DNA from: a virus
IMG/VR virus record: IMGVR_UViG_3300044706_000011
Span: 1-39,960 of that record
Strand: one strand, 5' to 3'
DNA length: 39,960 nt
Below the pieces are notes generated by a model. That model had not been told where the DNA came from. It did not search any database and saw only the letters and a list, made by a program, of their open reading frames with translations. The translations under genes were made by a program, and so were the position numbers. Position 1 is the first letter of the stretch. Each line of letters opens with the position of its first letter. This document shows positions 10,667 to 16,811 of the stretch, in pieces.

Positions 10667-10898
10667 TGATCTGCTCCTCATCGTCAGGTTTCCCATCGCC
10701 GCAGTGGGGGCACCAGTACGTGCCGTGTCCAGGTTCATCGGGATCTTCCTTGAAGTTGTCGGGCCACTCTTCGCGCGGCAGCACGATGCTTTGCCCGATG
10801 GTCGCGCCAGGGATCTTGTAAAAGCAGGTATGCGGAGCGACGCCATACGAGGGGAAACACGGCAGCCCATCTGGATCAGTGCAGAATTCGCAGCTCAT
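10659..10898 (-). CDS. Hypothetical Cys-rich protein (79 aa)
   Basis: AAGGAG SD. CxxC at both ends (MSCEFC ... CPHCG), suggesting a zinc ribbon. Confidence 0.65.
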   Translation of the reverse strand: MSCEFCTDPDGLPCFPSYGVAPHTCFYKIPGATIGQSIVLPREEWPDNFKEDPDEPGHGTYWCPHCGDGKPDDEEQINV

Positions 10899-11593
10899 TC
10901 TTGCTCTCCTTTCTCTTCTTTCTGTTCGCTGGACAGCGGCGGTGCGGCGTAGAGGGCGCGCAGTTCCGCGATCTCGGCATCACGAGCTTTGGCTTGGCAC
11001 TTCGGGCAATAATGGATGCCCCCGTACCATTCGTCGCCGCATCGAGGACCTCCTCCATGATGGCCGCCTTCAACAGCACCACACCCTGTCACGCGCTCCT
11101 GCCACGTCTTCACGCCCTGCGCAGCTTGTGGCGGCATGTCGTCCGAAGGAATATGCACTTTCTGCATAGTGCTTTGATGGAGGGCGGCTGCTACTGCGTC
11201 ACGGGCGTATTGGCGCATCTGGTCGGTGGTGAACAGCGGGCCGGATTCAAGAACCGGCGCGACCTGCAAGAAGTCTGCCGTGTCGCTTTCCTCGCTGCAA
11301 ACGAACTCGACGGCGCCCTCGGGCAGTTCCGGCAGTCCGTCCTCACCTATGGATGCGGACGGAGTGCGGCGGTTCCATGCTGCAGCAGCGCTCGCTTTTG
11401 CCTTCGCGGCGCCTTCGCTGGAGTAATCATCATCGAATGCCGTCGTCGTGACGCCGCATTTCGTGCAGCACACGCCGTATTTGGCGGGGTAATAACCCCA
11501 CGATCCGGGCGTGTGCTTCATCTCGGCTGGGGCGCCGTCAAACGGGCACGGTTGCAGTTCCGGCTCGCGTTCGGCATCGATGTTCTCAGCCAT
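10895..11593 (-). CDS. Lar-like (restriction-alleviation family) N-terminal domain fused to a C-terminal zinc-ribbon region (232 aa)
   Basis: LQPCPFDGAPAEMKH ... VCCTKCGVTT ... AAAWNRR matches the Lar-family pattern. C-terminus has CGDEWYGGIHYCPKC. GGAGAG SD. Confidence 0.6.
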   Translation of the reverse strand: MAENIDAEREPELQPCPFDGAPAEMKHTPGSWGYYPAKYGVCCTKCGVTTTAFDDDYSSEGAAKAKASAAAAWNRRTPSASIGEDGLPELPEGAVEFVCSEESDTADFLQVAPVLESGPLFTTDQMRQYARDAVAAALHQSTMQKVHIPSDDMPPQAAQGVKTWQERVTGCGAVEGGHHGGGPRCGDEWYGGIHYCPKCQAKARDAEIAELRALYAAPPLSSEQKEEKGEQE

Positions 11594-11822
11594 TGGTGAT
11601 CTCTCCGTTGATTTCTGCAATAGCACAACGTGCCACATACTCTTTCGCTGTAAGCTGGTTTGCGCTGCATCCGTACTCGCACGCCAGCATGTCGGTCTTG
11701 TTGACCCACACTCCGTTTTCCATAATGGAGCCGTGGCCACATGGGCTGTAATACGCCTGCCCGCAGTTACATATGGGTCGGCCATTTGCGTACCGCTTGA
11801 TAAGGGTTTCCCACGCGGTCAT
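11586..11822 (-). CDS. Hypothetical Cys-rich protein (78 aa)
   Basis: GGGAGG SD. Overlaps both neighbours (ATGA and 8 nt). Confidence 0.65.
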   Translation of the reverse strand: MTAWETLIKRYANGRPICNCGQAYYSPCGHGSIMENGVWVNKTDMLACEYGCSANQLTAKEYVARCAIAEINGEITNG

Positions 11823-13412: not shown

Positions 13413-13757
13413 TTAGATGATTTTTGCTTCAATGCGCCGGGTAGCTTCAAGTGTTTGCCATGCTGAGAACTTCGCCTGCGCTGCGGTGATCAGCCAGCGC
13501 AAGGACTCCTCTTTCTCGACGGCAGCCTTCAGACCATCCAGCACTTCCAGATACTCCGGATGCGCGTATGCCTCTCGTTCCTGCGCGACGGCCGACTTGT
13601 GACCATCGATCTCGGCTTGCCGCATTAGGAGCGCCTTCTTCGATTTCCGAAATTCTTCCAAGTGAACGCGGTCAGCCTTGGCCTGCGCATATTCGGATGC
13701 GTGATCTCGAATGAAATCGAGCACCTTAAAGACGTCGATCTTGACGTCCTGTGTCAT
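13413..13757 (-). CDS. Hypothetical coiled-coil protein (114 aa)
   Basis: ATGA overlap with the upstream gene at 13754-13757. The ORF-track extension to 13859 lies inside the upstream CDS. Confidence 0.65.
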   Translation of the reverse strand: MTQDVKIDVFKVLDFIRDHASEYAQAKADRVHLEEFRKSKKALLMRQAEIDGHKSAVAQEREAYAHPEYLEVLDGLKAAVEKEESLRWLITAAQAKFSAWQTLEATRRIEAKII

Positions 13758-14053
13758 GGCCGCTTGCCCCATGCCGGCTGTCGCAGGGCCGCACGCTGCT
13801 TCGCCAGTTCTTCGATCTCGGCCACGCACGCGTCCATCAGCGTGAGAGTGTTGCGGCATCCTTCCAGCAAATCCTCGACTCTCTCTGGCACGTCGTCGCT
13901 ATCCGGCTGCATCCGGCGAAGAATCTGGGCTGCAGAGGCACCAAGTTGACCGCACAGCTTCGACAGGGCGAGCTTGGCATCCTCATGGGCGCCACGAACT
14001 GTCGAATAGCGGCCACGTGCGATCATGAGTTCATCGTCGGTCAGGTCGATCAT
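13754..14053 (-). CDS. Hypothetical protein (99 aa)
   Basis: ATGA overlaps with erf and with the next gene. Confidence 0.65.
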   Translation of the reverse strand: MIDLTDDELMIARGRYSTVRGAHEDAKLALSKLCGQLGASAAQILRRMQPDSDDVPERVEDLLEGCRNTLTLMDACVAEIEELAKQRAALRQPAWGKRP

Positions 14054-14667
14054 GCTTGCTCCGCGAGTTGTTGGTTGAGCTGTGCCTTGCGCTCGCTGGC
14101 GTGCTTCTGGAGCGCTTCTTTGCTGGCCGGGTACATGGCCACTGCTGCTTTCAGGTGCTCGCCGATCTCTTTGATCGTAGCGGCACCCTTGATGGCGTTG
14201 ACAGCATTCGCAAGGCCAACGCTGTCAGGCTGCGCGCGCACTTCGTGAACCTCGGCATCTGCATCGATGCTGGTTTCCTCGGTCGGGATGCAGAAGGCTT
14301 GGAATGCTGCGTACTTGTATGCTGCGCTCATCGCCTTGTTCGTGGCTTTGTCGCCGCTATCCATCGCTTCGCCGAACGTGGACACAGTGTGCTTGCTGCC
14401 ATCTTCAGCGCTCACCAGATCGAACTCGGCTTGCACCGTCACGTAGAACAGCGCGTTGCCCTTGGCGTTCGTGCGCTCAACGCATTCGCGCTTGATGCAA
14501 CGAGGCAGAACGCACAGCTTGTGCTTGGCCAGTAACGGAGCCAGAGCGTTGTACACAGCGTCGATGCCGCGGAAGTTGAAGCCCTGCGCCTGGTTTCGGC
14601 TGTCTTTGGAGATACCGCGTGCAGCCAGTTCGGCGGCGACTTCTGCGATTGCTTGGTAAACTTTCAT
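14050..14667 (-). CDS. erf: ERF-family single-strand annealing recombinase
   Basis: GFNFRGIDAVYNALAPLLAKH ... GEAMDSGDKATNKAMSAAYKYAAFQAFCIPT matches conserved ERF (P22 Erf family) blocks. Confidence 0.85.
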   Translation of the reverse strand: MKVYQAIAEVAAELAARGISKDSRNQAQGFNFRGIDAVYNALAPLLAKHKLCVLPRCIKRECVERTNAKGNALFYVTVQAEFDLVSAEDGSKHTVSTFGEAMDSGDKATNKAMSAAYKYAAFQAFCIPTEETSIDADAEVHEVRAQPDSVGLANAVNAIKGAATIKEIGEHLKAAVAMYPASKEALQKHASERKAQLNQQLAEQA

Positions 14668-14674
14668 GGTGTCC

Positions 14675-14851
14675 TCAGAATGGGATCAGGTCATCGTCCA
14701 AGTGGTGATCAGTGCTCGCCTCGTACTGCGGAACATGTTCGTCGTGCCAGTGAAGCATTTCCTCTGCTTGCTCGTCCTCGGTCATGCCATCAATGTACGC
14801 ATCCCTCAGATTGCGCTTGGCATGGGCTGCTTGGCTGTATTTGCGTTTCAA
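14675..14851 (-). CDS. Small acidic protein ending in an SSB C-terminal-tip motif (..HHLDDDLIPF). 58 aa from TTG 14851 or 36 aa from ATG 14785.
   Basis: Hand translation. The TTG start overlaps the upstream stop (TTGA). The stop lies 7 nt before erf, whose GAGGA SD is in the gap. No OB-fold-sized body. Confidence 0.5.
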   Translation of the reverse strand: MKRKYSQAAHAKRNLRDAYIDGMTEDEQAEEMLHWHDEHVPQYEASTDHHLDDDLIPF

Positions 14852-14961
14852 CTCGGTCTCCAGATAGCGGTTTGGTCAGCGTCATCCAGCTCCTGCACTT
14901 CCGCTACGATGAACAGGAATGCAGCGAGGAATACGAGGGCTTGGGCTATGTTTCGAATCAT
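14848..14961 (-). CDS. 37-aa single-TMD peptide (MIRNIAQALVFLAAFLFIVAEVQELDDADQTAIWRPS)
   Basis: ATGA overlap with the upstream gene stop at 14958-14961. Below the ORF-track size cutoff. Confidence 0.45.
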   Translation of the reverse strand: MIRNIAQALVFLAAFLFIVAEVQELDDADQTAIWRPS

Positions 14962-15624: not shown

Positions 15625-15668
15625 CGCTGCTGCTCCTGTTCTGTCCGGCGCCGCCGGCGGTTGGTTTA

Positions 15669-15692
15669 TTGGTGCCGGTTACGCTCTCCGGC
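15669..15692 (-). repeat. Y-type hairpin copy (minus sense GCCGG-AGAGCGUAA-CCGGC-ACCA) near the 3' end of the island
   Basis: Plus strand ttggtgccggttacgctctccggc resembles the module left ends. Confidence 0.4.
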
Positions 15693-15782
15693 GCCGCGCA
15701 GGTACTACAAGGCTTGGGTTTCGCCTCCCTGTCGGCCGTTTTGCCTTCGTTGCGGTTCAACTGAACGGACCGAACTCTCCGC

Positions 15783-15908
15783 TGTGGTGGCCGGTGCTGA
15801 TCTCCGGCTTATCTGGTCCATCCGTTACGGCCCCTTCTGCTCATTTGGGGTATGGCTTCACCCACTATTGCCAGCATCACGATCGCATCAGCCTGCGAAT
15901 TCACCACA
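15783..15908 (-). ncRNA. Module A: about 126-nt element with conserved inverted termini and a unique core
   Basis: Left end tgtggtggccggtgctgatctccggc (15783-15808), right end gcatcagcctgcgaattcaccaca (15885-15908). Minus-sense UGUGGUG/CACCACA closing helix. GCCGG-N9-CCGGC hairpin whose loop AUCAGC complements the upstream GCUGAU. Confidence 0.55.
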
Positions 15909-15910
15909 GA

Positions 15911-16014
15911 ACAAGGGGCTGGATTCGAACCAGCGACCTCCTGTAACATCGACCACCTGTTTTCACCCGGGCAGATCGCCAATGTCAGGCGCCCTACCTC
16001 TGGGCTACCCTTGC
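15911..16014 (-). ncRNA. tRNA-shaped RNA element (104 nt) with acceptor, D and T arms but a 50-nt rod in place of the anticodon stem-loop
   Basis: Minus sense reads GCAAGGG-TA-GCCC-AGAGGTA-GGGC-G-[50 nt]-AGGTC-GCTGG-TTCGAAT-CCAGC-CCCTTGT. The acceptor extends to 12 bp (15906-16019). No anticodon loop can be drawn and no CCA is encoded. Confidence 0.7.
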
Positions 16015-16093
16015 TCTGTAGGGGCTCCTTACGGGAGCCAATCGGCGGCACTAACTTTCTCCGCCCGCCACAACAGTTATCGATTGCTGCTCG

Positions 16094-16214
16094 TGTGGTA
16101 GCCGGTGCTGAATTTCCGGCATACGGATCCTTATCCGCTTGTTCCCGTCCCTGACTACCCACCGTTTGGAACCGTGGTCCGCCAGTTGGCGCATCAGCCT
16201 GCGCATTCACCACA
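16094..16214 (-). ncRNA. Module B: second copy of the conserved-termini / variable-core element
   Basis: Left end tgtggtagccggtgctgaatttccggc (16094-16120), right end gcatcagcctgcgcattcaccaca (16191-16214; 23/24 identical to A). The closing helix contains a G.U that would be an A-C mismatch on the + strand. Confidence 0.55.
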
Positions 16215-16290
16215 TGACGAGCACCTGTCCGGGCGTCCCCTTTAAGACAGGCCGCGACCAAGTGCCGCGTTCCTAGGATTGCTCGTCATG
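16213..16290 (-). ncRNA. 78-nt element closed by a perfect 11-bp helix, directly 5' of module B (same position as the tRNA-shaped element relative to module A)
   Basis: Minus sense CATGACGAGCA ... TGCTCGTCATG encloses two hairpins (CGCGG-CACTTGG-TCGCG and CCTGTC-N16-GACAGG). Confidence 0.5.
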
Positions 16291-16811
16291 TGATGACTGG
16301 CTTACGACCAGTCAGGCGAGCTATTCCCGTAATTCGCGCCGTAGTCTTTCGGCGTTGCAGCGGTTTGATGCATCCATGTGTCGATGCTTATTCGTGGCCA
16401 ACACATGGCGCACATCACGGGCTTTTCCCCTCGCGCTACCGAAGGATTGAAAGGTGCAACGCGCCACATTTGTTCAGTGCCGTTCTGTTCTCGGCCGTCA
16501 GGGCATTTCAGATCCCGCTGCGTCGATTTCCTGACCCGACATCAGGGCAAGCCTTGCGTTGTACGTCGGTGCAAGGCGATCCGTTAGCCGTATTACTTAC
16601 CCCGGCTCCGGGCGATTAGGTGCAGGCTCTTCCCCTGCTTGGCGATGCTCACCTGAGTCATCGCGTTGCCCGCGCTGCCACTTGGCTGCGGGCCGGCGGC
16701 CGACCAGGCGTTAGTTCATATATGCACTATGGGATTTGCTGTAACTTCGCATATCGCCTCCTGTCAGTAGTTGAGTCCTCGTTCATCGCTTGGGACCATC
16801 GCGCAAAAACT

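Follow-up and report, generated by a model that had tools for sequence, protein, structure and literature searches.

Small proteins with a C-terminal [IL]PF tip encoded directly upstream of phage annealing recombinases: a putative accessory family with an SSB-tail-like end

The phage genome analysed here encodes, directly upstream of erf, a mini-protein of 58 aa that belongs to a family of small proteins found in front of single-strand annealing recombinases and mostly ending in a free PF. Our tentative reading, to which we give a probability of about 40%, is that of a recombinase accessory protein which would dock by its C-terminal tip into the SSB-tail pocket of its own recombinase. The window, by which we mean the whole stretch of 39,960 nucleotides that was analysed (IMG/VR virus record IMGVR_UViG_3300044706_000011), is the nearly complete genome (40 kb) of a temperate phage that encodes an integrase; no ssb was found in it by tblastn.

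The 58-aa ORF with its stop codon is located at 14675-14851 on the minus strand and is translated as (M)KRKYSQAAHAKRNLRDAYIDGMTEDEQAEEMLHWHDEHVPQYEASTDHHLDDDLIPF*; the stretch with the C-terminal tip reads ..TDHHLDDDLIPF. The features of the window referred to below are the following:

14675 to 14851, minus strand: mini-protein gene, encoding an N module (KRKY basic helix, acidic helix, WHDEH) and then a 19-aa acidic tail with the tip
14678 to 14698, minus strand: codons of the tip D-D-D-L-I-P-F, with the stop codon directly 3'
14849 to 14861, minus strand: translation start region, with GGAG at 14861-14858, a 6-nt spacer and TTG at 14851-14849
14665 to 14677, minus strand: junction to erf, with the stop codon TGA (14677-14675), the 7-nt gap GGACACC and the erf ATG (14667)
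14248 to 14667, minus strand: Erf annealing core, residues 1-140 (Pfam ERF, E=2.4e-22)
14053 to 14220, minus strand: Erf C-terminal domain, last 56 aa, VGLANAVNAIKGAA..HLKAAVAMYP..KHASERKAQL..AEQA; candidate docking site for the tip
13754 to 14053, minus strand: 99-aa ORF overlapping the erf stop (ATGA), a recurrent neighbour of the module

A small ORF adjoining erf and ending in DDDLIPF without an OB fold had been described in a sequence-only reading of this DNA, and it was read here in the same form, with 58 aa and without any Pfam SSB match. For its start two alternatives had been named, a TTG overlapping (in TTGA) with the stop codon TGA of the 37-aa ORF before it, or an internal ATG at 14785, which would give 36 aa. 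Both start codons are present. As an ATG is found in the homologues of the loci L001 and L009 at the codon where the window has TTG, and as residues 2-13 are invariant among the closest six homologues, the 58-aa form is the conserved one, and not the 36-aa form. The position of the stop codon 7 nt 5' of the erf start, with a Shine-Dalgarno sequence in the gap, was found as described before; the motif GAGGA straddles the stop codon of the small ORF and the gap. In ten related loci the distance from the stop codon to the recombinase ATG is 7-11 nt. When all stop-to-stop frames with 25 aa or more are taken from the six reading frames of the window, only the small ORF has a PF end.

A word-indexed search revealed six other clusters of 58-63 aa which are 69-89% identical to the mini-protein, and an exhaustive HMMER profile search gave four further, more distant members. 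With a profile built from 14 diverse members 103 clusters were recovered, which together with the earlier matches amounts to a family of about 106 clusters with lengths of 46-99 aa. The HMM and sequence searches for small erf-adjacent ORFs with a similar tip, which the sequence-only reading had proposed, were therefore productive. Pairwise dN/dS values among homologues range from 0.13 to 0.38, at dS values from 0.2 to saturation. Judged by these substitution ratios, the small ORF is a real gene under purifying selection. Since only the last 6-7 residues resemble an SSB C-terminus (SSB-Ct), one could regard the ORF as the decayed 3' remnant of an ssb gene or as a chance ORF. However, the ~106 clusters are all short, they share a conserved N module which is not of OB type, none of the homologues contains an OB fold, and no homologous locus carries a full ssb at this position. 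Together with the purifying selection and the negative Pfam search for SSB this makes such an origin extremely improbable, and the truncated ssb remnant that the earlier reading had taken into account does not hold.

The mini-protein has no above-threshold match in Pfam, PHROGs, NCBIfam, PADLOC or the PDB sequences; its sole Pfam match at E<=1 is a sub-threshold one to DUF5663. It does not contain the OB-fold domain of about 100 aa that characterizes the SSB family (PF00436). Neither the mini-protein nor its long form nor the Erf C-terminal domain has a match in 50,697 records of isolated phages, and two scans of representative genomes revealed no family member. Some family members are found in chromosomes of Massilia sp., including CP012640.2. 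Full-text literature searches revealed no account of a natural free-standing SSB-tail mimic, nor of this family of mini-proteins.

The family is built from modules. The N module comprises the KRKY basic helix, an acidic stretch and DWHDE; it can be followed by a middle element, ADALQQYEE.A.RR, then by a proline-rich stretch, and the C module has the consensus W.P.MTEQER..HEQYV...[LI]PF. N-only, C-only and combined forms all occur. For the mini-protein of the window AF2 predicts, with low confidence (pLDDT 61), helices at residues 7-12 and 25-39 and a coil from 40 to 58, so that the DDDLIPF end would terminate a disordered linker with an acidic [IL]PF-COOH tip.

The tip was compared in the first distinct homologues collected from readable loci. 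The Pro at position -2 and the Phe at -1 are invariant in these (22/22), and 21 of the 22 have Leu or Ile at -3. In the whole family 90 of the 106 clusters have a PF end (73 LPF, 12 IPF and 5 other xPF), and this PF always directly precedes the stop codon. The other 16 clusters consist of the N module and a Gln-rich tail without PF. Such an end is rare: all fetched loci together contain 5,747 distinct frames with a length of 40 aa or more, and only 59 of them have PF at the end. About 27 of the 59 are SSBs whose genes lie 3' of erf, about 23 are members of the family described here, 3 represent a second small family upstream of erf and about 6 are noise; the background rate of PF ends is about 0.1%. 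The [IL]PF-COOH end, which on these counts is the most conserved element of the family, fits an SSB-tail-like docking peptide.

The three members of the second family are small ORFs directly 5' of erf (L046 1290-1481, L072 1248-1460 and L102 1196-1480) and are unrelated to the mini-proteins. They end in ..RYFLGGCPF, ..RYFLPTGNEPF and ..QYFLPNGKEPF, the latter two of the type ..YFLPxGxEPF. Small proteins of this slot may therefore have come to a free PF end repeatedly.

Like SSB-Ct, the mini-protein has a free C-terminal Phe, a Pro before it and Ile or Leu before that, which corresponds to the aliphatic residue at -3 of an SSB-Ct-type docking peptide. Its tip likewise ends a predicted disordered segment, and it shares operons with phage SSBs whose tips vary in a similar way. 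The likeness to the SSB tip that the sequence-only reading had put forward is thus borne out for the [IL]PF end, but not for the exact spacing of the E. coli DDDIPF, because the tip of the mini-protein (DDD-L-IPF) contains an extra Leu and is one residue longer. Acidic residues just upstream of the tip are a further likeness, which is limited to the window and the short subfamily to which it belongs; there the last nine positions hold 2-3 acidic residues and the tips are DDDLIPF, DDETIPF, DEHKLPF and DEQQLPF. The long and C-only forms are commoner and end in ..EQYV[RK][ED]N[ND]LPF, with 0-2 acidic residues near the tip and often a K or R at -7. Most members of the family end in ..RENNLPF or ..KEQNLPF and have, in contrast to SSB-Ct, only 0-1 acidic residue near the tip, whereas a DDD run is typical only of the short subfamily. 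Mimicry of SSB-Ct in the strict sense, as it was suggested before, is therefore confined to the short subfamily. In contrast to SSB, the mini-protein has no OB fold, no DNA-binding body and no sign of a tetramer.

The genomic context was read for about a third of the ~106 clusters. In every locus with a readable neighbour (~35 distinct contigs) the family gene lies directly 5' of a recombinase gene, at distances between an overlap of 4 nt and a gap of 27 nt (-4 to 27 nt); two loci have one inserted gene, an HNH endonuclease gene in L035 and another ORF in L028. This fixed position suggests co-translation of the partners. The coupling to erf noted in the earlier reading applies to the window, where erf follows directly, but the general partners are single-strand annealing recombinases of seven families:

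Erf of phrog_155: window, L003/5, L011, L012, L026, L049
Erf of phrog_2324: L018-22, L033, L034, L041
phrog_3290: L001, L013, L023, L027-31, L039
Sak: L009
Sak4: Massilia sp. prophage L126-128, L136, L141
phrog_1366 (Sak4-related ATPase): L133, L134, L137, L138, L142
RecT with a RecE-like exonuclease after it: L124, in which the small protein has only the N module and no tip

Also the C-only forms stand in front of recombinases. The tip-bearing members examined have no exonuclease gene beside the recombinase. In L124 (4001-6704) the 52-aa N-only member, which ends in ..NNNQRSQE, overlaps the start of the RecT-like gene, and a 585-aa RecE-like exonuclease gene comes next. This single locus hints that the tip is dispensable where a dedicated exonuclease is present.

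The gene downstream of the mini-protein gene encodes an Erf protein (Pfam PF04404, E=2.4e-22; phrog_155, E=1.1e-36). Related Erf cores in IMG/VR are 71-83% identical and have many different C-terminal domains attached. [quoted passage not shown] Neither the mini-protein nor the 99-aa gene further downstream is conserved to this degree, and with dS values of 0.7-1.3 and an omega of about 0.1-0.2 the domain is under purifying selection. A conservation merely due to the recency of the whole block was considered and is ruled out by these dS values and by the downstream gene, which is only ~50% identical. AF2 predicts a three-helix bundle for this domain (pLDDT 86). When the predicted domain was compared with the PDB by Foldseek, all matches were generic three-helix bundles without any at E<=0.001, and neither the Redbeta C-terminal domain nor Orf was among the top matches; we therefore do not propose that the domain is homologous to that of Redbeta.

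With the Erf C-terminal domain alone as query, 18 loci were retrieved from IMG/VR and the JGI metagenomes. Sixteen of these reach far enough upstream, and all 16 encode an [IL]PF mini-protein upstream of the recombinase. The tip is also found with recombinases which lack this C-terminal domain, namely in L049 and in the Sak4 loci. On the basis of these loci the pairing of the tip with the Erf C-terminal domain appears strong but not exclusive, and since the tip occurs with other C-terminal domains and with Sak4, a single recombinase pocket shared by all partners is an assumption.

Recombinase genes of different families end in ..QQLAEQA (window 14050-14070, minus strand, as well as L001-L043, L133 and L138). 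A GGAG lies within the codons of this end, and the start codon that follows overlaps the stop codon in the sequence ATGA. As both would serve the next gene, the conservation of ..LAEQA is probably a DNA-level constraint of translational coupling and not a protein motif.

A full SSB is encoded just downstream in 30 of 80 loci with a related Erf core; the tips of these neighbouring SSBs include DDDIPF, DDQKIPF, DDSDIPF, DYDVPF, DDAPPF and DDDLPF. Where ssb is present in homologous loci, it is a separate gene and located downstream. Loci with the same Erf C-terminal domain as the window contain no ssb within the sequence covered. L009, L049 and L127 encode the tip protein and a full SSB with its own tip in the same locus; in L009 and L127 both genes belong to one operon. 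The idea that the tip protein is a general stand-in for a missing phage ssb is ruled out by these three loci, and the mini-protein is therefore not a strict substitute for SSB.

The position upstream of erf corresponds to that of Arf of phage P22, which the sequence-only reading had not mentioned. Arf is annotated as an Erf cofactor (accessory recombination function), the molecular function of which is still unknown (PMC12315714). Like the mini-protein, Arf (47 aa) is small and acidic and is encoded immediately 5' of erf in the early-left operon. In contrast, there is no detectable homology between the two (hhalign probability 0.08%), Arf ends in ..WDEFAGYYS and not in PF, and Arf-type proteins go together with a different Erf C-terminal domain. 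The isolated-phage relatives of the Erf core of the window have Arf homologues or other small acidic ORFs in the arf slot. In P22 a small hydrophobic ORF, kil, precedes arf. The window has in the equivalent place of the kil-arf-erf order a hydrophobic 37-aa ORF (MIRNIAQALVFLAAFLFIVAEVQELDDADQTAIWRPS; 14848-14961, minus strand), which overlaps the start of the mini-protein gene and the start of which overlaps the stop of an upstream 124-aa ORF (ATGA). This 37-aa ORF is kept in L026, L028 and L035.

Other proteins of such operons comprise lambda Gam, P22 Abc2, Mu Gam-like proteins and Orf/NinB. They share with the mini-protein the operon and a general tuning of the processing of host DNA ends; they differ in that no relation in sequence or fold to the mini-protein exists. 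Mu Gam-like and NinB genes are neighbours in several related loci, and no homologue of NinB or Mu Gam was found in the window. Homologues of the 99-aa ORF, with ~50% identity, are encoded downstream of the recombinase in L001, L003, L019 and L009; L023 and L127 have a Mu Gam-like gene in its place. The 99-aa ORF has no match in Pfam, PHROG, NCBIfam or PADLOC.

The window contains some further features. Its terminase is at most 48% identical to the terminases of Acetobacter, Bradyrhizobium and Stenotrophomonas phages. Residues 73-145 of the ORF at 10895-11785 (minus strand) match a Lar-like restriction alleviation protein (phrog_599, E=8.8e-08). In an ORF-poor region of ~1.2 kb (about 15625-16810) of the early-left operon a match to the tRNA model of Rfam was found at 15910-16014 (minus strand), which has 51.8 bits (threshold 29), covers the whole model and is 105 nt long. 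This tRNA-like element has 42 nt in place of the 9-nt anticodon loop, i.e. an insertion of ~33 nt. ARAGORN identified no tRNA in the window.

The partner proteins of SSB take up its C-terminal ..IPF-COOH in a hydrophobic pocket with basic residues. Recombinases of phages are among the proteins with such a site. The C-terminal three-helix bundle of Redbeta binds an SSB-Ct peptide with a Kd of about 11 uM, the exchange F177A abolishes this binding, and the same surface accepts Phe94 of lambda Exo (PMC6393309). [quoted passage not shown] Both Redbeta and Sak4 offer a pocket for the Phe of a partner or for an SSB tail, and this pocket is needed for recombination (PMC6393309, PMC5928155); the window compares with a predicted three-helix C-terminal domain of Erf. 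There the ligand is SSB or an exonuclease, whereas here it would be a free-standing mini-protein. Because Redbeta and Sak4 bind SSB tails (PMC6393309, PMC5928155), a partner recombinase is at least as likely a target as a host nuclease or helicase.

We infer both the docking function of the tip and the pocket concerned. Given an invariant free [IL]PF end and a presumed co-translation with whatever recombinase is present, the mini-protein would most simply be explained as an accessory factor whose end occupies an SSB-tail pocket. In this explanation the mini-protein would be an accessory protein of the single-strand-annealing recombination module of the phage, in the position of P22 Arf, composed of an N-terminal helical module and a disordered acidic tail, whose ..DDDLIPF-COOH would dock in the manner of an SSB tail. 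The C-terminal Phe would enter, together with its carboxylate, a hydrophobic pocket with a basic rim, the likeliest one being the SSB-tail site of the recombinase translated from the same message, in the window presumably the three-helix C-terminal domain of Erf. By this the mini-protein would replace or gate the handshake with the SSB tail which annealing proteins need on SSB-coated DNA. The pocket of the own recombinase is placed first because the gene order is fixed and translation is coupled, because the tip co-occurs with the C-terminal domain, and because phage recombinases tolerate weakly acidic tips, as in NDYPPF. Against it stand the tips of most family members, which are weakly acidic (NNLPF) and unlike the canonical SSB-Ct, the sixteen clusters which are entirely tip-less, and the co-occurrence with SSB in L009, L049 and L127.

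A pocket on a host partner of SSB is about as defensible as one on the own recombinase, and the indifference of the family to the type of recombinase is explained equally well by such a host enzyme. Two forms of this idea, both already proposed in the sequence-only reading, have to be considered. In one of them, which we regard as rather unlikely, the tip would be a decoy that competes with the tails of host SSB for the pockets of ExoI, RecJ, RecQ, PriA, chi or RecO, and would in this way, during recombination of the phage, shield 3' single-stranded ends or impair repair by the host. The variety of recombinases agrees with a host target shared by all pathways, the tips of the short subfamily (DDDLIPF, DDETIPF, DEHKLPF) lie within the variation of phage SSB tips (DDQKIPF, DDSDIPF, DDDLPF), recombination modules often include anti-nuclease genes, of which the Mu Gam-like genes of L023 and L127 are examples, and the window itself lacks ssb. 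However, most tips of the family are weakly acidic with a K or R at -7 and match the basic ridges of known SSB-Ct pockets poorly, a monomeric peptide would have to beat a tetrameric SSB, and in L009 and L127 it would compete with the SSB of the phage itself; moreover, neither the strict position before the recombinase nor the conserved N module is explained by a decoy. The other form, to which we give still less weight and which we hold to be unlikely, is a bridging adaptor: the N-terminal or middle module would be bound to the recombinase or to DNA, and through the tip a host enzyme that binds SSB, e.g. the RecJ/RecQ resection pair, would be brought to a recombinase without exonuclease. The modular build with N-only, C-only and combined forms would suit an adaptor, and so would the basic N terminus and disordered acidic tail, which echo the layout of SSB, and the one N-only member of known context, which precedes RecT and a RecE-like exonuclease while the tip-bearing members examined have no adjacent exonuclease. 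The N-only evidence is however that of a single locus, and the C-only forms in front of recombinases imply that the N module is not a universal recombinase-binding part.

Finally, [IL]PF could be a docking motif from outside SSB biology, directed to the beta sliding clamp or another host hub, with a convergent likeness to SSB-Ct. The non-acidic family consensus ..EQYV[RK][ED]N[ND]LPF would agree with that. Proteins that bind the clamp use hydrophobic C-terminal peptides of the L-x-F type, such as QL[SD]LF, or QLSLPL in Hda. By inspection, the tips have no Q-L at the positions of the clamp motif and only L-P-F resembles the end of it, so that a beta-clamp-binding motif finds no support; in addition, PF-COOH is in these loci otherwise almost exclusive to SSBs, and the genomic context is that of SSB-dependent recombination. 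A target of this kind is therefore quite improbable. An N-like arginine-rich motif was also considered for the basic N terminus and likewise finds no support by inspection.

Returning to the accessory protein that would dock to its own recombinase, a broader claim can be attached to it, which we consider doubtful: that the family represents the first natural free-standing SSB-tail module, i.e. modular mini-proteins which would give any annealing recombinase an SSB-tail handshake, or which would wire it to, or shield it from, the interactome of host SSB. If this is true, such a module would be a plug-in factor that frees recombinases from the SSB of host or phage. Recombineering is driven by annealing recombinases (Redbeta, RecT, Erf, Sak, Sak4), and what limits their transfer between species is the contact with the C-terminal residues of the host SSB. 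A tail-bearing mini-protein that travels with the recombinase could be a natural modulator of this contact and might serve as a simple co-factor for better recombineering in new hosts. If the target were a host enzyme, the mini-protein would represent the first natural peptide to mimic the SSB tail, an interface that is already pursued as an antibacterial target. For the biology of these phages, the docking of such a protein to its recombinase would offer a first mechanistic access to the 'Arf slot', whose proteins have been without a known function since 1991.
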